64,000 bases of DNA from positions 21,858 through 85,857 of the forward strand of contig JAUSKB010000011.1 of NCBI GenBank assembly GCA_030647415.1, given 5' to 3'. Below the pieces are notes generated by a model that ran no database searches, was not told the origin of the DNA, and saw only the letters and a list, made by a program, of their open reading frames with translations. A program made the translations under genes and the position numbers. This DNA is from a bacterium (GTDB taxonomy: Bacteria; Patescibacteriota; Minisyncoccia; UBA6257; GWB1-50-10). Positions 1-63,104 of this stretch are shown one piece after another (the first letter of the stretch is position 1; each line of letters opens with the position of its first letter).

Positions 1-2554
1 CTAAAAACCCGTAGGATTGCGAACTCGCGCCGATATGATAATTCGCGCCGGGCGCCACATACATTTTGTAATATCCCTGGCTGTCCGTTTTCGCGTTTCC
101 GTTCCCCGGGCCTCCCTCCAGCCAGGCGTAGAGCGAAACACTCGCTAAACCGTTCCCCGCCGCGTCTTTCACATACCCCTCAATAAAATCAGACGGTGGC
201 GCGATAATTATGGTTGGCCCCTTGGGCGGATCAGTAATTTCATACGTGTCATCAACATCAACTTGCACCTCAACGGGGAAAGGCATATTTTCTCCGCCCA
301 CTCCTATTTTCCAGACCCCTTTTGAAACATTGAGCGTGAACGTACTGCTCGCCGTAACTTGCGCGCCGGTTCCTTTTCCGCCATTCGGTTGATAGGCAAA
401 CACCCATAATCTTCCGCGTTCTTCACTGCCAAATTGCCCGGATGGTTTTTGCACCGTGCCGACAATTCTATGTGTGGCCGAGGAAAACGTGAAATTTTTT
501 ACGGCGGTCAGCGTTGAAGACGATATGGTTGCTAACTGCGAATCAGGGTCGGTAAACGCGGTTGAAACCGTAATCCCGCCGGATGACGATGGCGGTATAT
601 GCGCCTCAATTCTATATGTTCCGTTTATCGGCACCCCAACGGCATAATTTGCGATACAATCGCCTCCGGTGGTAAAGAACGCCGGCTCAACTTGTTTAAA
701 GCCGGAATCCCCGGAATTAACGCTGTCGGGCATCGCGAATACAACAACTTGTTTATTTTGTCCGCCCGCCGCGCAGGACGCGCCCAACGTTACGGTGCCG
801 GAAATTTTCCGAGAAGTCGCCGGCATAAACAGATTTTGCGCCGCCGAAGTATTCACTTCTCTCCCCGCGGAATTCAAATGCGTTCCGGTTACATCATAGC
901 CCCAGGTATATCCCATTGAAGAAACACCCGTTATTGAAAATGTATCGGTGCCGGCATTGTACGTCATAAAGCCATCACCGACTGAATAGACCGTCATACC
1001 ACTCATTCCTCCGATTACAATACGAATGTTTGTGTTATCCCCGTCCGTCATCGGCGTTGACGTGCCCGACGAATAATACACCTTCGCGGTATACGCGCCC
1101 GCGATGTCGAAGAACGTGTTCGGTCCCATATCATTCATCACGCTTCCCGCAAGAACGTTGACGGGGCCTCCCTGCGCTCCCGCCGGCACTTTTACCACAA
1201 TTGAAGTATTGGACCAACTTCCGCCGGTATAATTCGCCTCAATGGGAGGAAGCGGTCCTGTTTGCTGGCTAAACCCGCCGGAAAAGAAAACCTTGTGATT
1301 GGCATCGCCAATAGTCCCCCCGCCCAGCGTACCGAAATTCGTTCCCGTAATCGTAACGGTTGAGCTTACCGCCCCCGATTGCGGACTTATGCTCGTAATA
1401 CTGGGAAGCGTAAGCGCCTGCACCGGCATACTTGAACTTGAGTAGGCGGTAAGTTTATTATTTGCCCCGCCCAGATCCGTAATCGTCGTGGAGGTGGGGA
1501 CAGAAAAGGAAGCGGTTCCAGACAATGCAAGTCCGCGAATGGTTATCTTCGTTCCGGAAAAATCTACAAACGGAAGGCCCATGCCTCCGCACGTAAGCGC
1601 CGCTCCGTTCACAATATAATTCGGCGTACAGTTCATCGCCTGCATCCCGTCAACATTTTCACTTAAGTTCAAAATAATTCTGTCGGTAAACGCCGTGGCG
1701 GAAGTTATAAACGGCGCCGCGTCCGCCGCAATCGTCACCATATTTGATACATTGCCCGCCTGGTCGTTTACTTGCACATCCACGCTTGTATAGGTGGTAG
1801 TATTAATCGCGAATGGCGCAAATTGACCGGATGGTCCCAACGTCGCTTGCCCTAACAGTGTCGTGCTGGCAGACACATACGCCTTGACTATGCTTCCATT
1901 CGTACCAATGGAAGCGCTCCCCATTGGCGCGAGTTGATTATTCCCAAGCAGAAAATATCCGGCCAAAATATTCGCCGGAGAAACCGCGTCTATGGAAATC
2001 ACCGCTGTTGACGTCGCGTTTATGGTCGGCGAAACACCGCTGGTGGCAACGCTGCTCGTCGCAACCGAAAGCACAAATTTATGCGTATCCGAATTTAATC
2101 CGCTTGCTGTTTTAAACGCGACGAGAAGCACGCTTGGCGTTGACGTTGAGAGCGCTACGGGAACTTTCAATGCAAGTGTCGTTGTAAATGGTCCTGCACC
2201 AGTCCATGAAGGAGTGGTGGACGCTTCCAAAAATCCGCTGGAAGCGCTGTATAAAGAAATACCCGAATTCGTGCTCGTTCCAAGCGCCGCAAGGTCGCTC
2301 GTTAAAAATCCGGTACTCGTCGCATCCGCGACAGAAATTGTAATCGCGGCAAGCGATTCACCTGCATTGCCGGTCAAAGAAATTTGTATGGCCGAGGTTG
2401 TCGCGCTTCCTCCCATTACCCACACTGGTCCTCCCAGTAAGTTTGTCGCGTTCCCAGAAACCGCAGCGCGAACCGTCACCAGATACGCGGAAGCGAAAGA
2501 AACGACTGCAACGACCGATACTACGAGGAACGCAATTTTATATAATTTTTTCAT
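1..2554 (-). CDS. Large secreted surface protein, partial (3' end runs off the window start). It is Ser/Thr/Gly-rich with IPT/TIG-like Ig repeats.
   Basis: On the minus strand an ATG at 2554-2552 opens MKKLYKIAFLVVSVVAVVSFASA (signal peptide), followed by repeats such as ITGTNFG. No in-frame stop occurs before position 1. The long + strand ORFs over it (1992..2627, 599..919) read as antisense shadows. The gene is absent from the ORF track because it is truncated. Confidence 0.55.
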   Translation of the reverse strand, partial: MKKLYKIAFLVVSVVAVVSFASAYLVTVRAAVSGNATNLLGGPVWVMGGSATTSAIQISLTGNAGESLAAITISVADATSTGFLTSDLAALGTSTNSGISLYSASSGFLEASTTPSWTGAGPFTTTLALKVPVALSTSTPSVLLVAFKTASGLNSDTHKFVLSVATSSVATSGVSPTINATSTAVISIDAVSPANILAGYFLLGNNQLAPMGSASIGTNGSIVKAYVSASTTLLGQATLGPSGQFAPFAINTTTYTSVDVQVNDQAGNVSNMVTIAADAAPFITSATAFTDRIILNLSENVDGMQAMNCTPNYIVNGAALTCGGMGLPFVDFSGTKITIRGLALSGTASFSVPTSTTITDLGGANNKLTAYSSSSMPVQALTLPSITSISPQSGAVSSTVTITGTNFGTLGGGTIGDANHKVFFSGGFSQQTGPLPPIEANYTGGSWSNTSIVVKVPAGAQGGPVNVLAGSVMNDMGPNTFFDIAGAYTAKVYYSSGTSTPMTDGDNTNIRIVIGGMSGMTVYSVGDGFMTYNAGTDTFSITGVSSMGYTWGYDVTGTHLNSAGREVNTSAAQNLFMPATSRKISGTVTLGASCAAGGQNKQVVVFAMPDSVNSGDSGFKQVEPAFFTTGGDCIANYAVGVPINGTYRIEAHIPPSSSGGITVSTAFTDPDSQLATISSSTLTAVKNFTFSSATHRIVGTVQKPSGQFGSEERGRLWVFAYQPNGGKGTGAQVTASSTFTLNVSKGVWKIGVGGENMPFPVEVQVDVDDTYEITDPPKGPTIIIAPPSDFIEGYVKDAAGNGLASVSLYAWLEGGPGNGNAKTDSQGYYKMYVAPGANYHIGASSQSYGFL

Positions 2555-2668
2555 CCCATTAGAAATAAACAAGCATAACCCAATTGACCAGAAAGGGCCT
2601 CGTATTCAAATGCTTTGTTGTTCATAAAAATTGATTGCATGTTTATTTCTAACGGGATGCATCCCTAC

Positions 2669-3823
2669 CTACAGAAGTCCATTTAGTTTCGCGCGGGTTT
2701 TCGGTCCCACAAAACCATAGCCGGAATCGCCCGGCTTCGCGATATTGTATTTCTCCTGGAAGGCCTTCACCGCGCTTTCAGTCAAGGCGCCGAAATATCC
2801 GGTCGCGGACACATTCAAGAGACCTTCGTTCTTCAGTATGTTCTGAAGCGCTGTCACGTCTGCTCCCTTCGAGCCTGCGCCTAATGGCCGGTTGAAAGCC
2901 GTGCGGGGAGCGGCGGCGGGAGACGATGGCGTCGTGGCGGGCGCCGGAGCAGGCACGGAGATGGGCGCGGACGGAATAATGTTTTCCGCAATCTTCGTCC
3001 GGGTAAGGGGTCCGAGATACCCGGTGGCCGGAAGTCCAATGCTCGCTTGGTATCGCGCCAGAGCCGCCCGGGTAGCATTCCCGAATAGATTTGTTTCGTG
3101 ACCTGGGGACCCCGCGCCGCCTGCCGCCACCGGAAAACCGTTGCTGTTTAAGAATGTTTGAAGTTGCCGCACATCTTCACCGTGCGAATTAAACTGTAAA
3201 TTGCGTGAAAAAGACGCTCCACCGCCCGCCGCGGTTGAAGGAGCCGCTCCTTGTTGCGTACCTGCTTTGTTTTGTAGGACCTGCAATTGAGCGAGCAACG
3301 CGCTCAATTGGTTTTGCGCCGAAGTGCTGGTACTGGCGCTGGTACTGGCGGGGGTGGCAACGGAAGTTGTGGTAGCGGCAGTCGGCGCTACATACGTACC
3401 GCCGCCTCCCCCGCCGCCGCTGACATTGACCGTAGCTGCTGATGAAACCGTGATGGTATAGGCAAAGCTTGCCACCGTCGAAGAAGCGCTATTTGCATAG
3501 CAGGCAATCGCTTTAATGGTCGCCGATGAGCCCACCGAGATTGCGCTGGAGTATGTCGTGCCGGTTGAAGGGCAGGCCGGCGCGCTGCCGTCGGTAGTGT
3601 ACCGGATGCTGGTCTCGCCGGTGGCGTCCAAGGTAACGCTCTGGGCAGAGGTGTAACTGCCCGCCGCGGGACTCGCGGTCGGCGCCGCCACTACCGTCCC
3701 CTCCACGGGACAATTCACGCCGGTGCACAGCGAACCGGTTATTTCAGACGCAAGAACAGGAAGCGCCGCAAGGAAACCAACCGCACATATGAGTAATGTT
3801 TTTGAGTTCACTATCCTATTCAT
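2669..3823 (-). CDS. Secreted peptidoglycan-binding protein. It has a signal peptide, a CHB_HEX_C/Fn3-like domain (IRYTTDGSAP), a coiled-coil (LSALLAQLQVLQ), and two PG_binding_1 domains.
   Basis: Two copies of the motif G.DV..LQ..L...G......G.FG..T..A...FQ (GEDVRQLQTFLNSNGF...ATRAALARYQ and GADVTALQNILKNEGL...TESAVKAFQ). The N-terminus is hydrophobic. Confidence 0.75.
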   Translation of the reverse strand: MNRIVNSKTLLICAVGFLAALPVLASEITGSLCTGVNCPVEGTVVAAPTASPAAGSYTSAQSVTLDATGETSIRYTTDGSAPACPSTGTTYSSAISVGSSATIKAIACYANSASSTVASFAYTITVSSAATVNVSGGGGGGGTYVAPTAATTTSVATPASTSASTSTSAQNQLSALLAQLQVLQNKAGTQQGAAPSTAAGGGASFSRNLQFNSHGEDVRQLQTFLNSNGFPVAAGGAGSPGHETNLFGNATRAALARYQASIGLPATGYLGPLTRTKIAENIIPSAPISVPAPAPATTPSSPAAAPRTAFNRPLGAGSKGADVTALQNILKNEGLLNVSATGYFGALTESAVKAFQEKYNIAKPGDSGYGFVGPKTRAKLNGLL

Positions 3824-8720: not shown

Positions 8721-9141
8721 ATTTATTACGAACTGAATTCTATCGCAGGTTCTTCCGCCAGAGGCACCGTGCCTACCGGCGGGCAGGGATCCACCTTCGC
8801 GCTTGCAAACGACCTTTTGTTTTTTTGCGCGGGAAGGTTTCAAGAACCTGCGTTTATTGTTTTAGATAGTTATGCCGAATATTTCTTGATGCCTGAATGA
8901 CCTTTTTATAAGATCTGAAATTAGGGTTAGTTATCAAATCAATATCGTACGTACATTGTAGCATACCCACTATTCTTCACCTGTGGATATGTGCAAAATA
9001 TGCACATACTGCGCGAGCCACGCGATTATCCGCTGGCGCTGCTGGAACGCTGCGTCTGAAATAATAGGTAGTAATGGCAGGTGAGAGTGGCGAGTTCGCG
9101 AAGGCGGGCCCGACTCGCATACAGGCGAGGCAGGGTGTAGG

Positions 9142-9267
9142 ATTCACCCTGTTAGAGATTTGCATACAATTTTCTGCCATATTTAAGTATGACGGTACTG
9201 AAAGCAAAAATGTACACCGAGAAAGTAGCGTGCGTGCAAATCTCTAACAGGGTAAACTTCTAACAGG
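9142..9267. promoter_or_regulatory. Inverted-repeat motif pair, (A)TTCACCCTGTTAGAGATTTGCA and TGCAAATCTCTAACAGGGTAAAC, about 70 bp apart, with an extra half-site TTCTAACAGG. It sits upstream of the initiating sugar-transferase gene.
   Basis: The 18-nt arms are perfect reverse complements (9142-9164 and 9235-9257). The same motif family recurs at 52324-52586. Confidence 0.5.
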
Positions 9268-9276
9268 TTGTTCGAC

Positions 9277-9291
9277 TCTGAGAGTCTCAGA
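9277..9291. promoter_or_regulatory. Palindrome TCTGAGAgTCTCAGA of 15 bp, 29 bp upstream of the ATG at 9320. A possible operator.
   Basis: The 7-bp arms are perfect reverse complements around a single centre base. Confidence 0.3.
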
Positions 9292-9319
9292 CTCGAAGAG
9301 GTAAATCCTGAAACCACGC

Positions 9320-10669
9320 ATGTCTCTTCCGAAGAAATTCGCATTGTTCCTCGGCGACATCCTGCTTCTCTACGTCGCGCTTGCGGGCGCCCTCCTTATC
9401 CGCTACGGCGTGGGCGAGTTCGGCGCCTCGTTTGACACCCATGTGGGACCCTTCTCGAAACTCTTCCTCCTCTGGCTCATCGTCCTCTACATCGCTGACC
9501 TGTACCGCCCCGCCGCGCTCCGGAGCCGCGCGGCCATCTGGCGGTCGCTCATCCGCGTCGTTGCGATCGCCGTCGTCGCCTCCACCGTCGTCTTCTATTT
9601 GTTCGGGAGTGAGTTCTCGCTCACGCCAAAAACGAACCTCCTCATCTTCGGCGCCCTCTTCCTCGCCCTTGACGCGCTGTGGCGAACGACGGTGCGCTCC
9701 CGCTTCGCGGCTGGCGCAGCAAACCTCATCGTCGTCGGCGCCTCGCCCTTGACTGCGGCAACCATCGCGCACCTCCGGGAGAACCCGCAGACCGGCTACC
9801 GCGTGGTCGACTGGCTCGAACGGCCGGATGCCGCGGCGCTTCAAACCCTGCCCGCGCGGATTGCCGAGCACCGGGCGGGCATGGTTGTCTTCGAACGGCA
9901 GACGCTCCTGAACCCGGATGCGCTCGCCGCCGCCTACCGCCTCCTGCCCCGCGAGGTCGCGCTCTTGACCTCGACTGATATCTACGAGACGACCTTTGAG
10001 CGCGTGCCGCTCGCAGAAATTGACGAGACCTGGTTCATCCGGAACATCACCACCCGTCGTCGCTTCTACGACGCGCTGAAGCGCGCCCTCGACCTCGCGG
10101 CATCCGCCATCCTGCTCGTCGTTCTCTCGCCCCTCTTCCTCCTCATCGCCCTCATGGTCGGCGCGACCTCGCGGGGCCCGGTCATCTTCCGGCAATCACG
10201 AATTGGGAAGCTTGGCCGGCCGTTCACACTTTATAAGTTCCGCATCATGGTCAAAAACCACGACGGCTCGCCCGTCACACTCACGAACGACCCGCGGTTC
10301 ACCGGCATCGGAAAATTCCTCAACTTTACCCACCTAAACGAGCTCCCGCAGCTCTGGAACGTCCTCCGCGGCGACCTGTCCTTGACCGGCCCCCGGCCGG
10401 AGAGCGCCGAGCTCGTCGCCCAGTACGCATCCCTCCCCTACTACGACATCCGCCACGTGGTGAAGCCGGGCGTGACCGGCTGGGCGCAGATCAACTTCAA
10501 GCCGAGCACCTCGCGCGAGGAGGCCTTCGAGAAACTCTCCTACGACATCTACTACATCGCCCACCGCTCGCTCCTCCTCGACCTCCTCATCATTTTCCGA
10601 ACCGTGAAACACCTCGTTGCCCCCGTCCGCCAGAACGCGCCCGCCGACCTTGGCGGACAAACCCGCTAA
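9320..10669 (+). CDS. Polyprenyl-phosphate sugar phosphotransferase (WbaP/WcaJ/EpsL bacterial sugar transferase family), the initiating enzyme.
   Basis: An N-terminal TM region and a C-terminal catalytic domain with ...KFRIM...DELPQLWNVLRGDLSLTGPRPE...GWAQIN. ATG at 9320. Confidence 0.9.
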   Translation: MSLPKKFALFLGDILLLYVALAGALLIRYGVGEFGASFDTHVGPFSKLFLLWLIVLYIADLYRPAALRSRAAIWRSLIRVVAIAVVASTVVFYLFGSEFSLTPKTNLLIFGALFLALDALWRTTVRSRFAAGAANLIVVGASPLTAATIAHLRENPQTGYRVVDWLERPDAAALQTLPARIAEHRAGMVVFERQTLLNPDALAAAYRLLPREVALLTSTDIYETTFERVPLAEIDETWFIRNITTRRRFYDALKRALDLAASAILLVVLSPLFLLIALMVGATSRGPVIFRQSRIGKLGRPFTLYKFRIMVKNHDGSPVTLTNDPRFTGIGKFLNFTHLNELPQLWNVLRGDLSLTGPRPESAELVAQYASLPYYDIRHVVKPGVTGWAQINFKPSTSREEAFEKLSYDIYYIAHRSLLLDLLIIFRTVKHLVAPVRQNAPADLGGQTR

Positions 10670-16736: not shown

Positions 16737-16801
16737 GACATTCCAATGTTCCGCGGAACATTGGAATGTCATACTGTGCCTGTTACCGTGTCTGTTACCG
16801 T
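16737..16801. promoter_or_regulatory. A 34-bp perfect palindrome (GACATTCCAATGTTCCG|CGGAACATTGGAATGTC) followed by a tandem 11-mer CTGTTACCGTG x2. It sits upstream of and overlapping the start of the oxidoreductase fusion gene.
   Basis: Perfect reverse-complement symmetry was verified base by base. The direct repeat lies at 16779-89 and 16791-801. Confidence 0.5.
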
Positions 16802-16840
16802 GCCTTTTCTGAATGGAGCGAGCGACGTATACTATATTTC

Positions 16841-18607
16841 ATGCGCATCCTGACCGGCAAGAAGTGGCGCGGGGGGTTCCTCGACTACCACCGGAACAAG
16901 AAGGAGTACCGAATCCAGGTGCTCGCATGGAAAAATCTTGAAAAACTCGAGAACGTCTACCACACCCGGCCCAAGAGCCTCCGCCTCCTCTGGAACTACC
17001 TCCCCGTCGTGGGGTTCGAAGGGCTCCTCACGAAGACCTGGTCTCGGCTCCGCGAGGACCGGCGGAACGAAAAGTACGTTGCCTGCGGCGTCGGTACCGT
17101 CATCGAGGGCGCCGGCGACGCACGATTCCCCATAGGTTCCATTGTCTGCTTCGTCGCGCCCTGGCACCCCGCGCTCGCGGAGCGCGTCGTCCTCCCCGAG
17201 GAGCTCGTCTTCGCCATCGATACGGCCGCGACGCCGAAGGTCCCCGACGGGACCATCCTCCACGCGCCGCTCGCGCGCGGAAAGAACGAGCTTCCCTGGT
17301 GGAAGCCGGTGCGCGCGTGGAGCACGTACGCCGGCATCGCGCTCTCCACGGAAACGATCTCCGAGCTTGAGCGAGGGCTCCGCATCGAGCTCTCAGCGAC
17401 CGACTGGTCACGGGCGGACCGCATGAACGCGTCCCACCCCGCGCCTGTCGCTCTCGTCCATGGCGGCGTCCCCACGTCAGGGCACTCAAACCAGCAACTG
17501 ACCCGCCTCGCCCGACGAGCGGGCGAGTCGAGGCGGGCAACCGATGGTTCTACAAGCTCACCATCTCTTCGAGAGCCTGAGGGCTCCTCAGAGCCTCGAA
17601 CGGCCCGAGCAGAGTCGAGGGACAACCGACAACCGAAGATGGGGATTCTCTACGGGTTCGGCAACTACGCGAAAACCAACATCATCCCCTACTCGAGGCC
17701 CTTCGTGAACATACGGACGGTCCACGAGATCGACCCCACGCAGATCGCCGGCGCGCACCGCGTGGAGCGATGGGAATCGTCCCCGTTCCCGGCAGAGAAC
17801 GAGCGGGCCGAGGTCTACTTCGTGGCGAGCTACAACCACACCCACGTCCCCATCACCCTCCACGCCCTTGCGCAGGGGGCCTACGTCGTCGTCGAAAAGC
17901 CCGTCGTGATGGACCACGACGAGCTCGCGGAGGTCGAGGTTGCGCTCCGGAAGGCGGGGCGGAAGCTCTTCGTCGGATTCCATAAACGGTACGGGCTTTT
18001 CAACCGGCTGGCGCTCGAGGACCTCAAGGTAGAGCCGGGCGAGCCCATCTCCTACCACTCCATCGTGTACGAGCTCATCCAGCCCGAGTTCTTCTGGTAC
18101 AACTGGCCGGTTTCGCGGAGCACCTTCCTCTCGAACGGCTGCCACCAGGTGGACCACTTCCTCCACCTGAATGGCTTCTCGAAGCCGAAAGACGCAGGAA
18201 TCAAGCTGCTCCAAGACGACGCCGTCGAGGTATGGATCGAACTTGAAAACGGGGCGTCCTTCACCACCACGTTCAGCGAGAAGGGCGTTTCGCGCGTCGG
18301 CCCGCGGGACCACGTGGAGCTGAAGGTACACGGCCGGAACGTGCGCATCACGGACGCCATCCGGTACCAGTCCGAGGATAACCACCGCATCATCCGGCGG
18401 AGGCGCATCGTGAAGACAAACAGCTACAAGGACATGTACCGGACCATCTGCGCGAAGATCGCGGCAAACGAACCGGGCGACACCATTGAGTCTGTCCTCA
18501 TCACCTCAAAAATCATGCTCGACCTCGAGGAGAAGCTCCAACACATGAAACATTGGGGTACTAGATACGATATCGCAAAGAAAGAGTTTGAAAAGCGTTT
18601 CTTCTAA
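16841..18607 (+). CDS. Fusion protein. An unknown N-terminal domain of about 250 aa is joined by a low-complexity linker to a C-terminal Gfo/Idh/MocA-family NAD(P) oxidoreductase, a putative sugar dehydrogenase.
   Basis: The C-terminal half has a Rossmann fold and the VVVEKP motif typical of Gfo/Idh/MocA. The linker is RRAGESRRATDGSTSSPSLREPEGSSEPRTARAESRD. The ATG at 16841 (MRILTGKKW) is preferred over the track start at 16766. Confidence 0.6.
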   Translation: MRILTGKKWRGGFLDYHRNKKEYRIQVLAWKNLEKLENVYHTRPKSLRLLWNYLPVVGFEGLLTKTWSRLREDRRNEKYVACGVGTVIEGAGDARFPIGSIVCFVAPWHPALAERVVLPEELVFAIDTAATPKVPDGTILHAPLARGKNELPWWKPVRAWSTYAGIALSTETISELERGLRIELSATDWSRADRMNASHPAPVALVHGGVPTSGHSNQQLTRLARRAGESRRATDGSTSSPSLREPEGSSEPRTARAESRDNRQPKMGILYGFGNYAKTNIIPYSRPFVNIRTVHEIDPTQIAGAHRVERWESSPFPAENERAEVYFVASYNHTHVPITLHALAQGAYVVVEKPVVMDHDELAEVEVALRKAGRKLFVGFHKRYGLFNRLALEDLKVEPGEPISYHSIVYELIQPEFFWYNWPVSRSTFLSNGCHQVDHFLHLNGFSKPKDAGIKLLQDDAVEVWIELENGASFTTTFSEKGVSRVGPRDHVELKVHGRNVRITDAIRYQSEDNHRIIRRRRIVKTNSYKDMYRTICAKIAANEPGDTIESVLITSKIMLDLEEKLQHMKHWGTRYDIAKKEFEKRFF

Positions 18608-18857
18608 ACTGAAAGGGTGCCCGCCCGCCGCGCCCGACACGCTTCGCGAGTCATGCGGGCGGGCATCGCTACCTGCCCGAAGCTGCTGCATCGCTGCAGG
18701 CGGGCGCGAAGCGTTGCGGGCGGGGGGCGACAAGTATGAGCGGGCGAAAGCGGAGTTCGAGCGCCGCTTCCGGTAAAGAGACTGCGCGGAGCGCACGCAA
18801 TGGCGGAGGCGGAGTTCTTTTTGCCATTTTCGCTAACTTTATATAGTTTCCTAAATA

Positions 18858-18886
18858 TTGCATAACTTTATAAAGTTTGATACTAT
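18858..18886 (+). promoter_or_regulatory. Promoter TTGCAT-N17-TACTAT for the Fic gene, with a leaderless or short-leader start.
   Basis: The hexamers were read directly. The -10 element overlaps the ATG at 18885, and the next ATG is at 18900. Confidence 0.4.
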
Positions 18887-18899
18887 GGCGATATCACGC

Positions 18900-19847
18900 A
18901 TGAAGCAAGCCAAACCCATGACCACTCGTCAAAAACTGGAAATCATCCGAAAGATGCTGGGACTGACCCAGACCAAGCTAGCCCAAAGGTTTGGGGTGTC
19001 CTTCGCGGCCTTCAACAGCTGGTGGACCGGTAAATCGAACCCGCGGCCGAAGATGCAGGCCGCCATCAACGAGCTGTTCCTGGAGGTGACCGGGCAGAAG
19101 ATAATCCCCGCCGACCAGCTCACCGCCAAGAAGCAGGCGTTGTCGCGGAAATCGGGAGAGCATGAAAACGTCGTGGCCGAAATTCTGGACAATCCGGATG
19201 TCCGCGACCAGTTCATATTGAAACTCACCTACCACAGCAACCGCATCGAAGGCAGTACGCTCACCGAGCCGGACACAGCAGCGATCCTTTTTGACAATGT
19301 CGCCTTGCCGAACAAAAGCATCATCGAACAGCTTGAAGCAAAAAACCACCAGACTGCCCTGAACTATCTTTTCGACTCTGTGGCCACGAAGGGGAAAATC
19401 AACGGGGCGCTGGTTCTCAAACTCCACGGCATTCTCATGAACGGCATAAAGTCGGATGCCGGCGCGTACCGCAACCATGGCGTGCGAATCACCGGTGTCA
19501 ATCTGCCGACCGCAAATTATGCAAGCGTACCGAAGTTGATGGCCGAAGCGATGCGCAAGACTGCCAAAAAAACGAAAGATGTCGTCGCACTCGTCGCCGC
19601 GGTGCACGGCACGTTTGAGCAGATCCATCCATTCTCCGACGGCAACGGTCGCACGGGCCGCCTGCTTATGGACGCCATGTTGCTTCAGGCAAATTTCGCC
19701 CCGCCCATCATCCGCCAAGAGCAAAAACGGCTCTACTACATGTATCTCTACAAAGCCCAGACCAAGGAGGATTACAGCCGGCTGGAGGATTTCCTCTGCG
19801 ATGCAATCGTGGACGGATTCAAAATCCTCGAGCGAGCTGATTCGTAG
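18900..19847 (+). CDS. Fic/Doc-family protein (putative AMPylase) with an N-terminal XRE-type HTH.
   Basis: The Fic core is HPFSDGNGRTGR. A class-II inhibitory motif SxxxEG (SNRIEG) precedes the core. The HTH is LGLTQTKLAQRFGVSFAAFNSWWTG. The track start at 18858 is TTG, and the true start is probably the ATG at 18885 or 18900. Confidence 0.7.
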   Translation: MKQAKPMTTRQKLEIIRKMLGLTQTKLAQRFGVSFAAFNSWWTGKSNPRPKMQAAINELFLEVTGQKIIPADQLTAKKQALSRKSGEHENVVAEILDNPDVRDQFILKLTYHSNRIEGSTLTEPDTAAILFDNVALPNKSIIEQLEAKNHQTALNYLFDSVATKGKINGALVLKLHGILMNGIKSDAGAYRNHGVRITGVNLPTANYASVPKLMAEAMRKTAKKTKDVVALVAAVHGTFEQIHPFSDGNGRTGRLLMDAMLLQANFAPPIIRQEQKRLYYMYLYKAQTKEDYSRLEDFLCDAIVDGFKILERADS

Positions 19848-20011: not shown

Positions 20012-20407
20012 CTATAAGGGGAGGTTGGGAGGGGTTAAGTCCGCGATTGCTTCGCGGACTTTTTCATACACACCCTCCAGATTCCGCAACACGTCATTGT
20101 TCCAAAATCGAATCACCATGATGTTTTGCTCCCGAAGGTATGCGGTCCGAACCGCGTCAGAATCGCTATCAATGTGCTGGCTCCCATCAACCTCTATCGC
20201 CAATCGAAACGCCGGACAGTAAAAATCCAGAATGTACGCACCGATGCCGTACTGCCTGAAAAACTTCACTCCGTTCATACGCTTGCCACGAAGCACACCC
20301 CACAGCTTCCGTTCCGCCTCAGTCTGCGACCTGCGCAACGACCTGCGCCGTTCCTTTAGGTCCTCACTGTTATAGAGGTGGGGCATAATTCCAGTAACCC
20401 CTCTCAT
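20012..20407 (-). CDS. DUF559 / Vsr-like endonuclease-domain protein.
   Basis: FYCPAFRLAIEVDGSQH...VIRFWNNDV matches the DUF559 signature. Family A palindromic repeats flank it on both sides. Confidence 0.7.
   Translation of the reverse strand: MRGVTGIMPHLYNSEDLKERRRSLRRSQTEAERKLWGVLRGKRMNGVKFFRQYGIGAYILDFYCPAFRLAIEVDGSQHIDSDSDAVRTAYLREQNIMVIRFWNNDVLRNLEGVYEKVREAIADLTPPNLPL
20039..20064 (+). terminator. Candidate terminator for the Fic transcript. It lies inside the 3' coding end of the convergent DUF559 gene.
   Basis: GTCCGCG-attgctt-CGCGGAC followed by TTTTT. Confidence 0.35.
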
Positions 20408-33140: not shown

Positions 33141-34259
33141 TTAACCGACAACACCCAAATCCTTCAACTTTTTCGCCGTATGCCGGACAAATCCAAGATC
33201 AAACTTCTCGGTCTTTATCCATCGCATGTAATCTCGGATCGCTTTTTCGGGTCGGTAGCGAGGCCGCCAACCGAGTCCTTTGAGTTTCGAAATATCGGAA
33301 ACCGCGTGGCGCGTATCGGTCCTCCTGAATCCCCCTACAACGATCGGCGAGGGCGTTCCGGTGATGTGTTTGACCATCTTTGCAAAATCGAGGACGCGGT
33401 ACCCTTTTCCGCAACCCACGTTAAAGATCTGATAATCGGCTTTTTTGTTCTGCATGACAAGCATATTCGCGGCGACAACGTCGGCAACATTCACAAAATC
33501 CCGAAGCTGCTTCCCGTCCTCATACACCGTGATGGGAAGCCCTGCGAGCGCTTGTGTTACGAAAATGCGGAGCGCCCCGGAATACGCGTTCAGCGGAGAC
33601 TGGCGAGGGCCTTGGACGATCGAGTATCGAAGCGCTACCGTCGGGATGGTGTGTGTTTTGCCAAAACGGAATGCCAACTGCTCAAGCGCTATCTTTGAAA
33701 GGCTGTACGCGTTCGGAGGAGAGGCAAGCTGGTTTTCGCGGAACGGAAAGAACTTCGCGGGCTTTCCGTGCTCGCATAAAATCGGCCACGTCGCTTTTTC
33801 CTTTTGCGCGGCAGGACGAAGTTCCGGATAAAAAATCTTCCCCGAATGGCGGCATTGGTACTTCCCGTCCCCGTACACAAACTGGGAGCTGGCGAGCACG
33901 ATTTTTTTTACCGGAAATCTTTTCTCGGCGATCACTTCGTACATCATCGCCGTCCCAGCTGTGTTGATGTGGAAAAAAGTGCTGAAGTCCGGCAATTGAT
34001 CCTGATATGCCGCCAGGTGAAACACATAGTCAATCCCTTGTAGCGCCCTCACCCAATCTTTTTTGTTTCGAACATCGCCCTTGATCAGTTCGAACCCCTT
34101 GCCCAGCACATACTTCGGCCATCGATCCGTATGCACCGGTTTTAAGAGGCAGTCCAAAATCCGCGCCGTGTATCCTTTGGCTTTAAGCGCGTCAGCGGTG
34201 TGACTTCCGATAAACCCCGCACCACCGGTAATTAAAACCTTTTGCTTTTGGTTATTCAT
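33141..34259 (-). CDS. NAD-dependent epimerase/dehydratase (extended SDR).
   Basis: VLITGGAGFIGSH and YSLSK. Confidence 0.85.
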   Translation of the reverse strand: MNNQKQKVLITGGAGFIGSHTADALKAKGYTARILDCLLKPVHTDRWPKYVLGKGFELIKGDVRNKKDWVRALQGIDYVFHLAAYQDQLPDFSTFFHINTAGTAMMYEVIAEKRFPVKKIVLASSQFVYGDGKYQCRHSGKIFYPELRPAAQKEKATWPILCEHGKPAKFFPFRENQLASPPNAYSLSKIALEQLAFRFGKTHTIPTVALRYSIVQGPRQSPLNAYSGALRIFVTQALAGLPITVYEDGKQLRDFVNVADVVAANMLVMQNKKADYQIFNVGCGKGYRVLDFAKMVKHITGTPSPIVVGGFRRTDTRHAVSDISKLKGLGWRPRYRPEKAIRDYMRWIKTEKFDLGFVRHTAKKLKDLGVVG

Positions 34260-34299
34260 GCCAGAGAAGATGCAAACTATGCAGGTGGTGCGGGGTGAA

Positions 34300-34329
34300 T
34301 CACGCGCCGCCGGTAATTAAAACCCGCAT
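34300..34329 (-). pseudogene. A 5' stub duplicating the start of the downstream epimerase gene (MRVLITGGA, then stop).
   Basis: Decoded codon by codon. It shares gttttaattaccggYggYgcg with the gene start at 34221-34245 and lies 40 nt upstream of the real ATG. Confidence 0.4.
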
Positions 34330-50439: not shown

Positions 50440-52323
50440 TCACTGCCATGTGCTTGCAATAGTAGCCGCCCACAGGCGCGACCAGTGGAGATCTCCTGCC
50501 TTGAAGCGGCGGAGGAGTTCCTTGCCATGGGCAGTCGCGAGCAACGGGCGAAACGCGTTATGCTCACCCACCACCGACGCGAGCCACTCGGCGAACGGGA
50601 AGGTGAATCCCATCTTCGGCCGCTGAAACACCTCCCGGGGCACGATATCCCTGACCGCCTCGACAAGGAGGGGCTTATTCACCCCGCCGCGCGGGAACTT
50701 GAGGTCTGCCGGGAGCGAGGCGAGGTACTCGACGAGCGGGTGGTCGAGGAAGGGCACCCGGACCTCGACCGAGTGGTGCATCGCCATGAAGTCGGTGTCT
50801 TTGAGGAGCTGGGATTCGAGATAGCTCTTCAATTCAAGATACGAGTGCGTGTCGGCTGGGTGAAGCGATTCGAGCACCTGGAGCTCGTGGCCTCCGGGAA
50901 CGAGCGATGCCGCGATATCCTCGACCACCGCCAACACCTCCGCTTCGTGCACGCCGAGAAGGGTCGCCGCTTCGCGCGGCGTGAAGAGCCCCCGGACCGT
51001 GAGATACTCGCCGATGAGGTCGCCCCGCATGAGGTACGATGCCTTAGGCGTCCGGCGGCCGAGCATCGCATGAGACGTCGCGAGCGACCGGAGCGCCGCG
51101 GGGAGGTGTGACACGAACCGGAGCGCTCTCGCCTTTCGGAAAGCAGGGTAGCCGAAGAATATCTCATCGCTCCCGAGGCCCGAGAGGACTGCCTTTAATC
51201 CTGCGGCCTTCGCTGCGCCGGCGATGAAGAAGGTGTTCACGCCGTCCACCGTCGGCTGGTCCATCGCTCCGAGCGCCTCGTCGAGCTCACCCATAAAATC
51301 GGCACGGCGGATGCGCGACTCCCGATGGTCGGTCTTCAGCCACCCCGCGACGCGGTCCTGGTAGAGCTTCTCGGAATATGCCGGCTCGTCAAAATTAACC
51401 GAAAGTGTGGTAACCGGTTTCGCGCGACCATGCGCCGCAAGTGCCGTAATCGCTGACGAATCAAGCCCGCCCGAAAGAAAGATGCCGAGCGGCGCGTCGG
51501 AGACGAGGTGGCTTCCGACCGCATCCGAGAGCAGCCGCCGCACCTCATGGGTCGCTTCGGCGAACGAGACGTCCCGTTTCCTCGTGAATGCCTCGAGCGG
51601 GTCGTAGTACCGAACGGTACGGATGGTGCCATCCACTCGCCGCTCCAGGTACGACCCCGACGGCACCGCAGAGACAGCGCGGAGCGTCGTCCAAGGCGAA
51701 GGCACCGACCCGGTGAGGAGAAACCCAATGAGCGCACGGGGGTCCCGTTCCGCCGGCACGAGACCGCTTTCGGCGAGCGCGCCGACGGTCGATGCGAACA
51801 CCACCTGATTGGGCGTTGCCGCGTAGTAGAGGGGTTTGATGCCATACCGGTCCCGAACGAGGTAGAGCATCTGATTTCGAGAATCCCACAGCGCAAATGC
51901 AAACATGCCACGGAGCTTCGAGAATGAAGCGACTCCTTCCCGCGCGAAGAGCGTGAGAATCACCTCCGTGTCGGTTTCCGTGTTGAATCGCTCACCGCGA
52001 GCCACGAGCTCCGCGCGAAGTTCGCGAAAATTGTATATCTCGCCGTTAAAGGTGATAGAAAGAATGCCCCCGGGAATCGAACGTTCCATGGGCTGATGGC
52101 CGGCGGAAGAGAGGTCGATGATGGAAAGCCGACGGTGCCCCAGCACCACTTCGCCTGTCCTGAGCGAAGCCGAAGGACCGCCGCCATTCGCAAGTGGATA
52201 GCTCGCAATCCCCTCGTCATCGGGTCCGCGCCGGACCTGCCGCGCGTTCATCGCCCGAACCGCGCGCTCAATCAATGCGCGGTCGCCCGCCCGAGTCGCT
52301 AGTATGCCGCTGATGCCGCACAT
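50440..52323 (-). CDS. asnB: Asparagine synthase (glutamine-hydrolysing) family amidotransferase.
   Basis: N-terminal MCGI (nucleophile Cys2), and SGGLDSS (PP-loop). Confidence 0.9.
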   Translation of the reverse strand: MCGISGILATRAGDRALIERAVRAMNARQVRRGPDDEGIASYPLANGGGPSASLRTGEVVLGHRRLSIIDLSSAGHQPMERSIPGGILSITFNGEIYNFRELRAELVARGERFNTETDTEVILTLFAREGVASFSKLRGMFAFALWDSRNQMLYLVRDRYGIKPLYYAATPNQVVFASTVGALAESGLVPAERDPRALIGFLLTGSVPSPWTTLRAVSAVPSGSYLERRVDGTIRTVRYYDPLEAFTRKRDVSFAEATHEVRRLLSDAVGSHLVSDAPLGIFLSGGLDSSAITALAAHGRAKPVTTLSVNFDEPAYSEKLYQDRVAGWLKTDHRESRIRRADFMGELDEALGAMDQPTVDGVNTFFIAGAAKAAGLKAVLSGLGSDEIFFGYPAFRKARALRFVSHLPAALRSLATSHAMLGRRTPKASYLMRGDLIGEYLTVRGLFTPREAATLLGVHEAEVLAVVEDIAASLVPGGHELQVLESLHPADTHSYLELKSYLESQLLKDTDFMAMHHSVEVRVPFLDHPLVEYLASLPADLKFPRGGVNKPLLVEAVRDIVPREVFQRPKMGFTFPFAEWLASVVGEHNAFRPLLATAHGKELLRRFKAGDLHWSRLWAATIASTWQ

Positions 52324-52586
52324 TTACCCTGTTAGAATTTTGCAGACATACTCGACTGATGAAAACAGATGTTTGTGTAGCAGGTCAGTGTCCAAAAATT
52401 TGAGTGTGTGCAAAATTCTAACAGGGTGAACCGCATTAGAGTTTTACACATAGACAGTTTCATAAAGATACGTCTTCTAAACCACAAACAATGTTTCATT
52501 CTTTTTCGAGTGTTTGTAAAACTCTAACAGGATAAACCACCGTTGAGTTTTGTACATCCCAGCGACATCTCTAACAGGGTGAATCC
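52324..52586. promoter_or_regulatory. Cluster of the same inverted and direct repeat motif seen at 9142-9267. It lies upstream of asnB.
   Basis: TTACCCTGTTAGAATTTTGCA (52324-44, reverse complement), TGCAAAATTCTAACAGGGTGAACC (52409-32), TGTTTGTAAAACTCTAACAGGATAAACC (52511-38), GACATCTCTAACAGGGTGAATCC (52564-86), and the reverse-complement partner TTAGAGTTTTACACA (52435-50). Confidence 0.5.
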
Positions 52587-53900
52587 CTACTGCCTTGGCG
52601 TCCCCGACGCCGATGGAGACGGGGACGTGTAATGAAACAGTGTGTAGAGTTTGGTAAACGGAATAAATTGTACGGTTGTGTCGTTAATTTTCATTTTACC
52701 CTCATCGCCAAGATGAACAACCAACGCCTTTTGGGGGGCGTATTTCCTGATAAAACTTCTCATGGAGCGCTCAACTGAAGGCGTAGTAATATTTTTATAT
52801 TTCACCTCAATCGGAATGATTTCGCCATCTAATTCGGCGATAATATCAACCTCCGCGCCATCCTTCGATCTCCAAAAACGAGTATCCCCTCCGCTTGATT
52901 GCGTACCGATATGCCTCAATTCATTCGCGATGAAGTTTTGAAATAGAAATCCTCCATCGTTGCTTGAAAGAGTTCTCCCAAAAATACCGCGCGCATAATT
53001 CCGTAACCCGATATCATTGAAATAAATGAGTGGTGATTTAGTGATCTCTTTTCGCGTGTTGCGAAAATACGGATACGCGCGGCGAATCACAAATGTTTTT
53101 TCCGCATACGCGATATAGTTTTTTATCGTGGGAAGAGATATGCCCAGCGTGGAAGAAAGCTCCGTATAATGAACCATATTCCCCGTCTGTTCCGCAAATA
53201 TCTTAATCAATCCTCGAAACGCGTCTATCCGCTCCACATGAAGCAGGTATGAAATATCTCGCTCGATATAACTTTCAAATATTTCGTTTATCACTCGTTC
53301 CTTCTCCCGCGATTCGTCTTCGGTAATAACACGGGGATATCCTCCAAATTGCATATATTCCTGCAGGAATTTTTCGGTGTGTGTTTTTTCAATTTTGAAA
53401 AATTCATCCAGGCGCCCCTCGTACCGATTTTCTGTTTTGAAATTCACAAATTCGCCGAACGAAACCGGGGTCATTTCAAATACGCGCTTTCTCCCCAGAA
53501 GCGATTCGTGTATTTTTTCTTTTAATTCCAAGCTCCCTGATCCTGAAACGATAAATTTATATGGAAGACCCATATCGTACAACCCCTTCAAAAACAATCC
53601 TGCATTTTCTTTTCTTTGAATCTCATCAATAAATACGTACCCGGTATGTTTCCCGAACTCAAGCATGAGTTTTTTTACGAGTGATTCTTGAGAGTCAAAA
53701 AATATTCTGTCGGATTCTACATCAAGATTGAGCCAAACCGTCCGTTCTCCGCGGGAGCGCAGCATATCATCAAGCATACGCATTAGTGTCGTCTTCCCAA
53801 CTTGACGGGCGCCAACAATAAGCGAAATTTCCTTTGCGGAAAGATGCTTTTTCAATAATTCAAATATAGTACGCTTGATAACCGAGTTTTTCAAAACCAT
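52587..53900 (-). CDS. AAA+ superfamily ATPase (AAA_14 with a DUF4143 C-terminal domain). Low-GC gene.
   Basis: Walker A GARQVGKTTL and Walker B VFIDEIQ. AT-rich compared with the cluster. Confidence 0.8.
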   Translation of the reverse strand: MVLKNSVIKRTIFELLKKHLSAKEISLIVGARQVGKTTLMRMLDDMLRSRGERTVWLNLDVESDRIFFDSQESLVKKLMLEFGKHTGYVFIDEIQRKENAGLFLKGLYDMGLPYKFIVSGSGSLELKEKIHESLLGRKRVFEMTPVSFGEFVNFKTENRYEGRLDEFFKIEKTHTEKFLQEYMQFGGYPRVITEDESREKERVINEIFESYIERDISYLLHVERIDAFRGLIKIFAEQTGNMVHYTELSSTLGISLPTIKNYIAYAEKTFVIRRAYPYFRNTRKEITKSPLIYFNDIGLRNYARGIFGRTLSSNDGGFLFQNFIANELRHIGTQSSGGDTRFWRSKDGAEVDIIAELDGEIIPIEVKYKNITTPSVERSMRSFIRKYAPQKALVVHLGDEGKMKINDTTVQFIPFTKLYTLFHYTSPSPSASGTPRQ

Positions 53901-56123: not shown

Positions 56124-56302
56124 TGTTTGAGCGTCTGGGTAAGTATACCTATTTTCTTCACGGGTTACTAATTTCTAATTCCTAATTCATAATTTCCAAT
56201 GAAATTCCCAATTCCCAAAACTTTGGCTCGAAAGATGGGGATTGGAAATTAGAAATTGTCCGCCTGAGGCGGATCCGCCTTCGGCGGAGGATTTGGAAAT
56301 TA

Positions 56303-63095: not shown

Positions 63096-63104
63096 CGATT
63101 ACTC

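Follow-up and report, generated by a model that had tools for sequence, protein, structure and literature searches.

Inverted arms at gene starts of a Parcubacteria genome are probably the ends of small non-coding foldback elements of one lineage-specific family

In the 64,000-nucleotide stretch of DNA analysed here (the window), a short motif recurs in inverted orientation upstream of an initiating sugar transferase gene and again upstream of an asnB-like gene, which raises the question of what this motif is and why it lies there. The original prediction favoured an operator shared by the two promoters and read by a regulator of the glycan cluster, with a structured cis-RNA or the terminal inverted repeats of a small element bounding the island as other options. 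The motif is far above chance: allowing up to three mismatches, TGCAAANNTCTAACAGGGTGAA matches the window five times and matches none of 100 dinucleotide-preserving shuffles, and with up to two mismatches CTAACAGGGTGAA gives six matches against 0.92 expected. Both the inverted pair about 70 bp apart at the transferase and the cluster at asnB are present, the latter as three full and three truncated arms in 52323–52583. The motif of 18 to 23 nt described at the outset is real, but conservation extends over more of the arm, to about 30 nt (GAGTGTnTGTAAAACTCTAACAGGGTGAATCC), and arms span 22–30 nt.

One unit is about 107–114 bp and comprises two inverted arms, whose outward ends read ...CTAACAGGRTRAA, and the spacer between them. 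The spacer keeps its length (65.7 ± 1.9 nt, n = 19, range 63–71) while its sequence is free, and within the arm consensus no stem forms (MFE −1.2 kcal/mol; the longest self-complement is 4 nt). Three loci of this kind lie in the window, at 9143–9305, at 52323–52583 and, in degenerate form, at 2550–2661 (Table 1). The two flanking arms of element 1 are 22 nt each and 95% complementary, and 14 nt separate the end of a third arm from the ATG of the transferase gene (9320). The nested palindrome that splits this third arm occupies the identical arm position in L045, a contig from the same sample, and in L020. A CTGATGAG string within the L045 insert was considered as a hammerhead core and rejected by inspection, as its flanks form a plain 5-bp Watson–Crick stem; the window copy reads CTGAGAG at that position. 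The palindrome at 8989–9007, previously taken for a related half-palindrome, has only about 8 nt in common with the arm and is conserved in relatives that lack the element, which makes it a feature of its own.

Upstream of asnB the units form a tandem array. The asnB ATG (MCGI...) starts at the last base of the gene-proximal arm, where ...CTAACAGGGTAA runs directly into ATGTGCGGC, and at the other end the collapsed third unit stops 3 nt from the stop codon of a DUF4143 ATPase gene (52587–53900). Element 3, overlooked in the original prediction, lies outside the glycan cluster, and its arms agree at 19/20 positions in a geometric inverted-repeat scan. Its minus arm contains the ATG (2554–2552) from which a long gene for a TIG/Big-domain surface protein runs on the minus strand (Pfam TIG; translation MKKLYKIAFLVVSVVAVVSFASA..., with the frame still open where the window ends), and its plus arm ends 7 nt from the stop codon of the gene at 2669–3823 on the minus strand.

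Table 1. Positions of arms, spacers and adjoining genes at the three loci of the window
Feature	Position	Strand	Evidence and remarks
Arm, element 3	2550–2571	−	nhmmer with arm profile; sequence
Spacer, element 3	2572–2639		68 nt
Partner arm, element 3	2640–2661	+	nhmmer with arm profile
Gene-distal arm, element 1	9143–9164	−	Ends GGGTGAA-TCC; sequence match
Spacer, element 1	9165–9234		70 nt
Second arm, element 1	9235–9256	+	Ends GGGTAAA
Third arm, element 1	9254–9267 and 9300–9305	+	Split by nested 32-nt palindrome, 9268–9299
Initiating sugar transferase (Bac_transf)	9320–10669	+	Pfam PF02397, 1.1e-58
asnB-like amidotransferase	50440–52323	−	Pfam Asn_synthase/GATase_7; first gene of long minus-strand glycan operon
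Gene-proximal arm, unit 1	52323–52344	−	Full; ends GGGTAA-ATG
Spacer, unit 1	52345–52408		64 nt
Distal arm, unit 1	52409–52430	+	Full; TGCAAAAT subtype, as in its partner
Truncated arm, unit 2	52434–52451	−	TGTAAAAC subtype
Spacer, unit 2	52452–52514		63 nt
Arm, unit 2	52515–52536	+	Full; TGTAAAAC subtype, matches 52434–52451
Collapsed third unit	52540–52583		Truncated arm 52540–52557 (−) and half arm 52568–52583 (+)

The motif is not specific to the glycan cluster. In the source genome and a sister population, units precede nusA, pheS, ssb, recO, gatA, a pilB-like T2SSE ATPase gene, prgI and nrdR, besides the TIG-protein gene, which disagrees with a cluster-specific operator; a search for the motif as a marker of glycan loci finds it before many unrelated genes, scattered through the genome, which is an outcome that the original prediction had named as its refutation. 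Our view of the source genome covers about 73 kb (the window and L045) and includes five loci with about nine units. In a metagenome scan, the same layout of a minus arm, 63–71 nt and a plus arm occurs on about ten contigs of metagenome Ga0209211 and in several other organisms with a GC content of 0.33–0.62. A pattern scan of GTDB representative genomes gave four single matches, which is chance level (about nine chance matches estimated), and no match was found in phage collections, plasmid collections or viral contigs. Since Wzy_C/O-antigen-ligase-like genes follow at 54729–59074, asnB is not the outermost gene of the cluster. That much of the cluster lies between the two loci is due only to their place at the head of an operon each. 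Of the ideas offered at the outset, that of terminal inverted repeats comes closest to the truth: every arm pair delimits a separate unit of about 110 bp. The island as a whole is not a single mobile unit enclosed by the two loci.

Concerted changes keep the arms of a unit complementary to each other. Across the copies, 81% of the cells in the arm alignment are paired and both sides change in 17 of the 30 pairs; the covariation score of 0.244 is reached by none of 500 shuffles (0.159 ± 0.014), and slid controls stay at or below 0.141. Either strand of the unit folds into a stem of 24–30 bp, with folding z-scores of −4 to −8. The spacers add no structure of their own (mean folding z, +0.1), and the stem shows no G·U bias between sense and antisense strands (16 on the sense strand versus 22). 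At the gathering threshold Rfam has no match in the window, and at the E-value threshold the elements overlap only with sub-threshold miRNA and snoRNA hairpin look-alikes. The covariation that was suggested as a check is thus present and an Rfam family is not, and a structured cis-RNA is possible only as a consequence of the element: the 24–30 bp stem fits it, whereas the lack of G·U bias and of an Rfam family does not.

A second constant feature is the start codon. In all 17 elements to which a gene could be assigned, the distance from an arm end to the ATG is −5, −1 or +8 to +15, and this proximity also holds for three elements in intergenic regions of 360–476 nt. The ATG is within the arm (AGGATGAA) in five genes and is begun by the last arm base (GGGTAA-ATG) in four, such that nine of the 17 assigned gene starts are in or flush with the arm. 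At arm positions 18–20, RTG is found in 12 of 18 distal arms, versus 0 of 12 proximal arms whose gene start is outside the arm (Fisher p = 3e-4), and the GTG in the arm is mutated to GTA whenever the true start sits just downstream. From these sequence features, the units have probably been co-opted as a gene-start module.

We found no conserved −35 or −10 box in the spacers, and promoter scans gave one arm-overlapping match at the transferase locus and none at the asnB locus. The match, a sigma70-like TTCACC-16-TACAAT at 9143–9170, overlaps the distal arm of element 1 and is directed inward; it is not conserved in the other copies and is disrupted in the L045 copy. The generalized form TTCACC-16-TAnAnT was rejected as an inward promoter of the distal arm, as A at −11 together with T at −7 occurs in only about 4 of 11 copies. 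An extended −10-like match in the arm is weak (3/6 in the hexamer, plus TG), and its −35 is absent. The nusA unit sits downstream of a canonical TTGACA-17-TACCAT promoter, so at least this unit need not carry one. Sigma54, ECF-sigma and T7-like promoters, T-boxes, LexA and DnaA boxes, attC and Xer sites were compared by eye with consensus sequences from general knowledge and set aside, as key positions or geometry did not fit.

Between close relatives, the units differ in presence, copy number and content, and in a sister strain the orthologous sites hold elements that have been replaced. Three relatives (L039, L040 and L041), whose transferase is 96% identical, have an empty site that reads ...GGGTGTAGGA joined to TAATCC...ATG, relative to which the window holds 160 extra nucleotides that begin exactly at the arm edge, 9143. 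This is the only clean empty site; the orthologous transferase promoter is without the element in these three close and in two distant relatives, and the nusA site is empty in L046, L047 and L049. The element-free transferase and nusA promoters of the relatives keep their own conserved promoter boxes, and no copy was found in about 61 kb of the relatives L042, L043, L046, L047, L048 and L049. Next to asnB, the DUF4143 gene of sister locus L031 matches that of the window at 98.5%, with one unit in L031 and 2.5 units in the window; a direct repeat TCTAACAGGGTGAA (52417–52430 and 52570–52583) bounds 153 nt that are absent from L031. Both the spacer and the asnB gene of L031 are unrelated to those of the window, with no homology between the spacers in either orientation, and the locus coincides with a recombination breakpoint between the conserved flank and the variable glycan genes.

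For at least one pair of copies, which lie at unlinked loci, the duplication is recent. In an all-against-all comparison of spacers, the only clearly related pair is that of element 1 (9165–9234) and the nusA unit of L045, which are 82% identical (z 11.7–13.4). The L020_1925 spacer is a more distant relative of both and is reversed with respect to the nested-insert arm (z 5.9 reversed, 1.2 direct). L024 carries a unit at exactly the same nusA site as L045, with another arm subtype and an unalignable spacer, whose only trace of similarity is a weak alignment in reverse (z 3.5 versus 0.9); the two nusA genes differ by only 17.5% at 4-fold degenerate sites. No long-form unit shows a target-site duplication, and the sole form with a flanking direct repeat is a tight 37-nt palindrome flanked by TCTGCG in L014, L017 and L032. 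Among 50 open reading frames scanned with Pfam, which cover the window ORFs in part, with about 73 kb of the genome in view, no transposase, RAYT (Y1_Tnp) or recombinase domain was found.

Taken together, we consider it probable that the motif forms the terminal inverted repeats of small foldback elements without coding capacity, which make up a lineage-specific family in a Parcubacteria (Patescibacteria/CPR) genome. In the best reading the family is new and non-autonomous, and similar to REPINs, Correia elements and MITEs. REPINs have inverted conserved ends, a spacer that is conserved in length and not in sequence, and compensatory changes in the hairpin (Bertels & Rainey 2011, PMC3116915), and like the present units they are about 100 bp, extragenic, present in many copies and sometimes clustered in tandem (PMC3116915). 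The inverted ends, the spacer of fixed length and the hairpin-keeping changes all recur here. However, each REP is in itself a short palindrome that bears a GTAG or CGTC tag, whereas the arm lacks an internal palindrome; the REPIN spacer joins the hairpin, whereas the spacer here is unstructured; and REPINs are random in extragenic space, whereas these units abut start codons. In addition, REPINs go with a single-copy RAYT (Y1 transposase) gene that the repeats flank, and here no Y1_Tnp gene was among the 50 ORFs scanned; the host is a CPR bacterium and not a proteobacterium or cyanobacterium.

The Correia elements of Neisseria (CREE/NEMIS) offer the best functional analogy. They are non-coding units of about 105–155 bp with terminal inverted repeats of about 26 bp and many copies 5′ of genes; promoters can arise from their ends, RNase III cleaves the hairpin once it is transcribed, and they are recombination hotspots that differ in presence between strains and duplicate their target sequence (PMC2649163). 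The present units share the small non-coding body, the terminal inverted repeats and the position 5′ of genes, and have a predicted fold and one sigma70-like match to set beside these properties. They differ in that the conserved core and ends of CREE, CCGGTACGG and TCAGGACAA, have zero occurrences in the three window loci and that no target duplication is seen. CREE lie at variable distances from genes and are not known to supply a start codon. As in bacterial MITEs, the non-autonomous derivatives of insertion sequences, terminal inverted repeats (arms of 22–30 nt) enclose a small non-coding unit, copies are dispersed within one genome (the five loci in about 73 kb; at least ten contigs in Ga0209211), and filled and empty sites exist at 9143 and at nusA. 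Unlike MITEs, the long-form units have no target-site duplication, neither a related full-length insertion sequence nor a transposase-encoding element with the same ends is seen in the DNA examined, and most spacers are unrelated, whereas a common interior is the norm among MITE copies.

This last point weighs on the preferred reading, since mostly unrelated spacers are unusual for a family that spreads by copying and count against mobility. Old copies with intact arms imply either that the arms are under selection where they stand, and so have a function for the host, or gene conversion between arms. Arm conservation is also in part an ascertainment effect, since the arm served as the query with which copies were found. 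The old copies favour a host-encoded RNA or DNA hairpin in place of a mobile element, a conserved stem in a 5′ UTR or between one gene's stop codon and the next gene's start that would signal processing, stability or translational coupling and be read by a conserved host factor, and so do the covariation, the folding z-scores, the arm sequence kept across organisms of GC 0.33 to 0.62, and the way in which the unit fills the gap from upstream stop to downstream start at element 3 (W3), the asnB locus (W2), L031, L033, L037 and L007. Nevertheless, we consider such a hairpin unlikely. The arm sequence itself, and not the ability to pair alone, is conserved among copies. The sense strand lacks an excess of G·U pairs, no Rfam family matches, and the distribution is patchy, with about 61 kb of closer relatives and the orthologous sites devoid of copies; a recent duplicate at an unlinked locus also fits such a signal poorly, and a stem of 24–30 bp across a start codon would block translation, not help it.

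That a site-specific invertase flips the 66-bp segment at the arms and switches the downstream gene on or off is very unlikely. The inverted repeats do enclose a short stretch that precedes genes for glycans, a surface protein, a pilus ATPase and prgI, their identity would be expected of crossover sites, the spacers of one subfamily point either way with respect to the nested-insert arm (L020 versus L045 and the window), and the nusA spacers of L045 and L024 align weakly and only in reverse. Bacteroides capsular invertons similarly have inverted repeats of about 20–25 bp with one consensus at several loci upstream of glycan operons. Inverton segments are about 170–190 bp and contain a promoter, and a dedicated invertase exists; for the synapse of an invertase, 63–70 bp is a very short distance. 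In the present units the segment measures 66 bp and lacks a consistent promoter, no recombinase or invertase is among the scanned ORFs, and the asnB locus has the same orientation in L002, an independent assembly of the same sample. Moreover, an OFF state would be lethal at the essential nusA, pheS, ssb, gatA and recO genes downstream of units, and a start codon in or next to the arm is not uncoupled by flipping.

Least probable of all is a paired operator, with two sites spaced by about 88 bp that would be bound by a cluster-specific regulator, as originally proposed, or else by a nucleoid or other global protein. Conservation of sequence and not of structure alone, the fixed spacing, the adjoining gene starts and an HTH-Fic gene within the cluster (18858–19847) are in its favour. 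Yet the element is not confined to the cluster and is missing from the relatives' orthologous transferase and nusA promoters, which keep their own boxes, and covariation of the arms is not required of an operator. Within a unit, the variable positions of the two arms change together, and between units they differ, a pattern that a shared protein contact surface would not yield, and the 63–71 bp range of spacing spans most of a helical turn.

For the foldback family that we prefer, a working scheme is as follows. The hairpin or foldback would be recognized through its arms, would spread or be exchanged between sites, and would be mobilized in trans by an enzyme encoded outside the window; since no target-site duplication is seen, a single-strand (HUH/RAYT-like) or recombination route is likelier than DDE cut-and-paste. 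The surviving copies would be those that landed against a gene start, where the outward arm may have been co-opted as gene-start context. The in-arm ATGs, the GGGTAA-ATG starts and the GTG-to-GTA changes suggest that transcription or mRNA processing makes a 5′ end inside the arm. One candidate route is the weak extended −10-like T-G-n-A-A-A-n-n-T at arm positions 1–9, from which transcription would begin near position 16; alternatively, RNase III would cut the long stem when the unit is read through. Either route would give short-leader or leaderless mRNAs.

A more radical reading, possible if rather unlikely, is that the unit is more than a selfish repeat and serves as a portable CPR gene-start cassette, in which the arm gives the 5′ end made by transcription or processing and even the start codon, a protein binds the stem, and the loop is rewritten. 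Essential genes would then receive leaderless or short-leader mRNAs from the outward arm, a dedicated protein would recognize the stem with its fixed 66-nt open loop, and the loop would be rapidly rewritten through cassette exchange, through inversion between the arms or through mutation targeted at the single-stranded loop. If true, gene heads could pass from locus to locus and from strain to strain, also at the border of the variable glycan cluster.

The genomes of CPR/Patescibacteria are usually regarded as very small and streamlined, and our search of the CPR literature found nothing on small repeats or gene-start signals. For annotation, the motif should not be read as a glycan regulator, and the 22-nt arm is a handy marker for tracing the lineage and its strain-level rearrangements in groundwater metagenomes. 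The nine of 17 starts in or flush with an arm amount to a natural experiment on Shine–Dalgarno-free initiation in an uncultured phylum. In sum, CPR genomes are able to harbour a foldback repeat that is active or was so until recently, one that would reshape the 5′ ends of essential genes and that marks a recombination breakpoint at a surface-glycan locus.

The inverted-repeat motif that the original prediction placed at both edges of the glycan cluster is borne out at locus 1, upstream of the initiating transferase, and at locus 2, upstream of asnB. Allowing three mismatches at most, TGCAAANNTCTAACAGGGTGAA has five matches in the window, and not one of 100 dinucleotide-preserving shuffles contains any. 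For the 13-mer CTAACAGGGTGAA, at no more than two mismatches, there are six matches in the window (0.92 expected). At locus 2 the last arm base is the first base of the asnB ATG (CTAACAGGGTAA followed by ATGTGCGGC), and the encoded N-terminus, MCGI, is obligatory for a class II amidotransferase. The left arm of a third unit contains the ATG of a long minus-strand gene for a secreted TIG-domain protein, so the family is not limited to the glycan cluster even inside the window. The ORF of this gene (window 1–2554, ATG at 2554) encodes a TIG domain and an N-terminus, MKKLYKIAFLVVSVVAVVSFASA, that resembles a signal peptide; it is missing from the ORF list because it runs, still open, past the window edge. 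A listed plus-strand ORF at 1992–2627, with neither a Pfam match nor a gene on record, is probably spurious. Rfam at gathering thresholds gave no match anywhere in the window, which also holds no tRNA genes; a weak PreQ1 riboswitch match on the minus strand at 8811–8857 (20.9 bits, gathering score 39, E = 0.08), overlapping the start of a 1669-aa surface-protein gene, is probably due to chance.

Coordinates of the foldback units, the gene bordering locus 2 and the nested mini-element
Feature	Position	Strand or orientation	Particulars
Locus 1 arms	9143-9164 and 9235-9256	- and +	95% complementary, separated by 70 nt
Locus 2	between the ATPase gene stop and the asnB ATG (52323)	arms alternate in orientation	three full and three truncated arms
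AAA_14/DUF4143 ATPase gene, bordering locus 2	52587-53900	minus	
Third unit, degenerate	2550-2661		spacer 68 nt; found by arm profile search over all collected sequences
Nested mini-element	window 9268-9299; L045 1791-1823; L020 1925-2021		ends TCTTCGAGTCTGAGAC...GTCGAACGA

An exact-pattern scan of representative genomes gave just four single matches, at chance level, and a metagenome scan gave 32 loci. The architecture arm(-), 63–71 nt, arm(+) is common to about ten contigs of metagenome Ga0209211 and recurs on contigs of several other organisms, with GC contents of 0.33–0.62. The aligned units share an arm of about 30 nt, GAGTGTnTGTAAAACTCTAACAGGGTGAATCC, and show no conservation in the interior; the spacer measures 65.7 ± 1.9 nt, is richer in AT than the surrounding genome and has no self-structure (mean z +0.1). 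Adjoining genes include pheS, nusA, ssb, recO, gatA, prgI, nrdR, a T2SSE (pilB-like) ATPase gene, asnB and unknowns. The host is a Parcubacteria-type CPR bacterium: among named organisms, the best matches to its transferase and NusA come from Jorgensen-, Wolfe-, Lipton- and Brennerbacteria and 'Patescibacteria group'.

The arms of a unit vary together. A variable dinucleotide (AC, TT, CT, TC or AT) and rarer changes are the same in partner arms and different between units; across 20 aligned units, 81% of cells are paired, and both sides have changed in 17 of 30 pairs. The arm covariation score, 0.244 against 0.159 ± 0.014, is reached by none of 500 shuffles, and slid controls give at most 0.141. 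G.U pairs have no strand bias (16 sense, 22 antisense).

All 17 units with an assignable gene have its start codon at -5, -1 or +8 to +15. At -5 the ATG lies within AGGATGAA (ssb, gatA, prgI, nrdR and the TIG gene), at -1 it follows as GGGTAA-ATG (asnB in two strains, recO and one unknown), and the more distant position is seen at pheS, nusA in two strains, the T2SSE gene, the transferase and others. We regard these starts as real because several N-termini look canonical by inspection (AsnB MCGI, SSB MNLNKV, NrdR MNCPVC). The second arm usually adjoins the stop codon of the preceding gene, and the unit stands against a start codon even where the intergenic region is as long as 360 nt (upstream of nusA) or 476 nt (locus 1). 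Of 18 gene-distal arms, 12 have GTG or ATG at arm positions 18–20. None of the 12 gene-proximal arms with a gene start outside the arm has either triplet there, GTA being found instead (Fisher p = 3e-4), a bias that fits the position where a start codon would be used.

Three contigs from groundwater samples other than the window's, whose transferase is 96% identical and whose upstream region is homologous, have an empty site that reads GGCAGGGTGTAGGA joined directly to TAATCCACATACGCC-ATG. The window carries 160 extra bases there, beginning precisely at the outer arm edge, 9143, with no evident target duplication. The more distant relatives L042 and L043 conserve a GGGTGTAGGATA box 15–20 nt before the transferase ATG (window 9131–9142, relatives about 9975–9990) at just 62–65% transferase identity; the motif is absent from the 21 kb of each. 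This box is probably the native -10 region; in the window the element is inserted immediately after TAGGA.

A contig from the window's own sample (L045) carries two further units upstream of nusA, one abutting a divergent T2SSE gene and the other in the nusA 5' UTR, 15 nt before the ATG. Ahead of the latter, the nusA unit, lie a canonical TTGACA-N17-TACCAT promoter and a leader hairpin that resembles a terminator. The spacer of the nusA unit is 82% identical to window spacer 9165–9234 (z 11.7–13.4), every other pair being unrelated in an all-against-all comparison; the two loci are unlinked, and the copying is recent. In a sister population (L024; NusA 94% identical, 4-fold sites 17.5% diverged) a unit occupies the identical nusA position, but with another arm subtype and an unalignable spacer, and relatives with 83–84% NusA identity have no unit at nusA. 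The nusA leader is conserved (L045 1705–1795, and upstream of nusA in L024, L046, L047 and L049) as a TTGAC(A/T)-N17-TACCAT promoter, then a GC-rich hairpin and a T-run, and looks like an attenuator.

At locus 2, the sister contig L031 has a 98.5%-identical ATPase gene and one unit, against two and a half in the window, whose extra 153 nt is bounded by the direct repeat TCTAACAGGGTGAA. Since the ATPase flank is conserved and the L031 spacer and asnB are unrelated to their window counterparts, the arm coincides with the breakpoint between conserved flank and variable glycan genes. The ATPase is about 60% identical to proteins annotated in Thermodesulfovibrionales, Nitrospirae, Omnitrophica and Aminicenantes, which suggests horizontal transfer; the GC content of its stretch is 0.40 (about 0.55–0.6 nearby). 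A Fic/HTH protein gene (18858–19847) and a DUF559 endonuclease-like gene (20012–20407) lie inside the glycan cluster.

In a third arm at locus 1 (9254–9267 plus 9300–9305), a palindrome of 32 nt (9268–9299) separates CAGG from GGTAAA. This mini-element sits at one arm position, between TTCACC and CCTGTTAG, in three different units; it is a palindrome of 32–33 nt in the window and in the nusA unit of L045, and is 97 nt long in contig L020. Only in reverse, relative to the insert-bearing arm, is the spacer of L020 similar to that of the window (z 5.9 vs 1.2), reflecting either inversion between the arms or separate, site-specific insertions of the nested element.

Other palindromes occur nearby and elsewhere. 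In another organism (L014 262–298, L017, L032, L038) the arm takes the form of a tight palindrome of 37 nt, TTTACCCTGTTAGAT-TGTAAAC-ATCTAACAGGGTAAA, flanked in the first three by the direct repeat TCTGCG, the sole hint of target duplication. The palindrome ATGTGCAAAATATGCACAT at 8989–9007 is conserved in the relatives L039–L041, none of which carries the foldback element; it stands on its own in the divergent intergenic region and is possibly an operator. A different inverted-repeat element at 63005–63105 has 20-nt arms (GGAGTAATCGCTAATAATGC, 19/20 complementary) 61 nt apart and internal AATAATGCGAAT repeats, and abuts the stop codon of gene 63105–63878; a similar arm occurs in L009 (9207–9226). 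Logan contigs of the window's sample end inside small palindromic elements (L001 at 9278, L044 at 63077, within the 63005–63105 element), and such hairpins may be where assemblies of this genome are prone to break. A 20-nt inverted repeat (34209–34301, 17/20 complementary) lies across the start of an epimerase-like gene (33141–34259), upstream of which inspection finds a duplicated N-terminal coding fragment (VLITGGA), and a GC-rich one (18628–18725, 17/20 complementary, 58 nt apart) occupies the gap between genes 16766–18607 and 18858–19847.

On the best-supported reading, the units form a family of non-coding foldback repeats that is specific to this lineage and that moves, or is exchanged, between sites. 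A functional hairpin encoded purely by the host would account for the intact arms of old copies and for the wide GC range, but it leaves the patchy distribution, the empty sites and the recent duplicate unexplained, and we consider it unlikely. An inverton is highly improbable: surface-related genes and the reversed L020 spacer fit it, whereas essential genes and a 66-bp segment do not, the spacer has no promoter, and no recombinase was found among the scanned ORFs of the window. Least probable is the operator pair, suggested in the original prediction as serving a regulator specific to the glycan cluster, which is contradicted by the covariation of arms within units, by orthologous promoters without the unit and by the units at many unrelated genes.

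For such a family of foldback repeats, a trans-acting enzyme would recognise the arms as a hairpin or as paired ends; since target duplication is lacking, the likelier route is single-strand (HUH-type) or recombinational. Copies landing against a gene start would persist, the outward arm providing gene-start context. A 5' end could form inside the arm by two non-exclusive routes. Arm positions 1–9 weakly resemble an extended -10, which would predict a start near position 16; the invariant G2, A4–A6 and T9 match -14, -12 to -10 and -7 of the extended -10, and the variable positions 7–8 match the least conserved -9 and -8. RNase III may also cut the 24–30 bp stem in read-through transcripts, and read-through of the unit must occur for nusA. 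The single sigma70-like match, TTCACC-16-TACAAT at 9143–9170, is not conserved in other copies. In the window and in the relative L042, several genes lack a Shine-Dalgarno sequence but carry a -10-like box within a few bases of the start codon, on its 5' side, which makes short-leader or leaderless expression plausible here. From these sequence patterns we infer that the arm may act as a promoter or processing context for gene starts.

The suggestion of a small element with terminal inverted repeats was essentially right, except that each arm pair is its own unit. The family belongs to none of the REPINs, Correia elements or MITEs. REPINs have two conserved ends in inverted orientation, a spacer that keeps its length but not its sequence, and compensatory changes (PMC3116915), all of which the units share, but the arm has no REP palindrome or tag. 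Correia elements have terminal repeats of about 26 bp, often lie 5' of genes, create promoters at their ends, form RNase III hairpins and are recombination hotspots (PMC2649163); the units resemble them in terminal repeats and position, but those of the window lack the Correia core motifs. The general plan is that of MITEs. The units differ from known kinds in having no target duplication and an interior not common to most copies; no transposase was found in about 73 kb of this genome, and nothing similar to the units in phage, plasmid and viral collections. In sum, the interest of the family lies in its host phylum, in the tight coupling to start codons and in a loop that is conserved in length but free in sequence.
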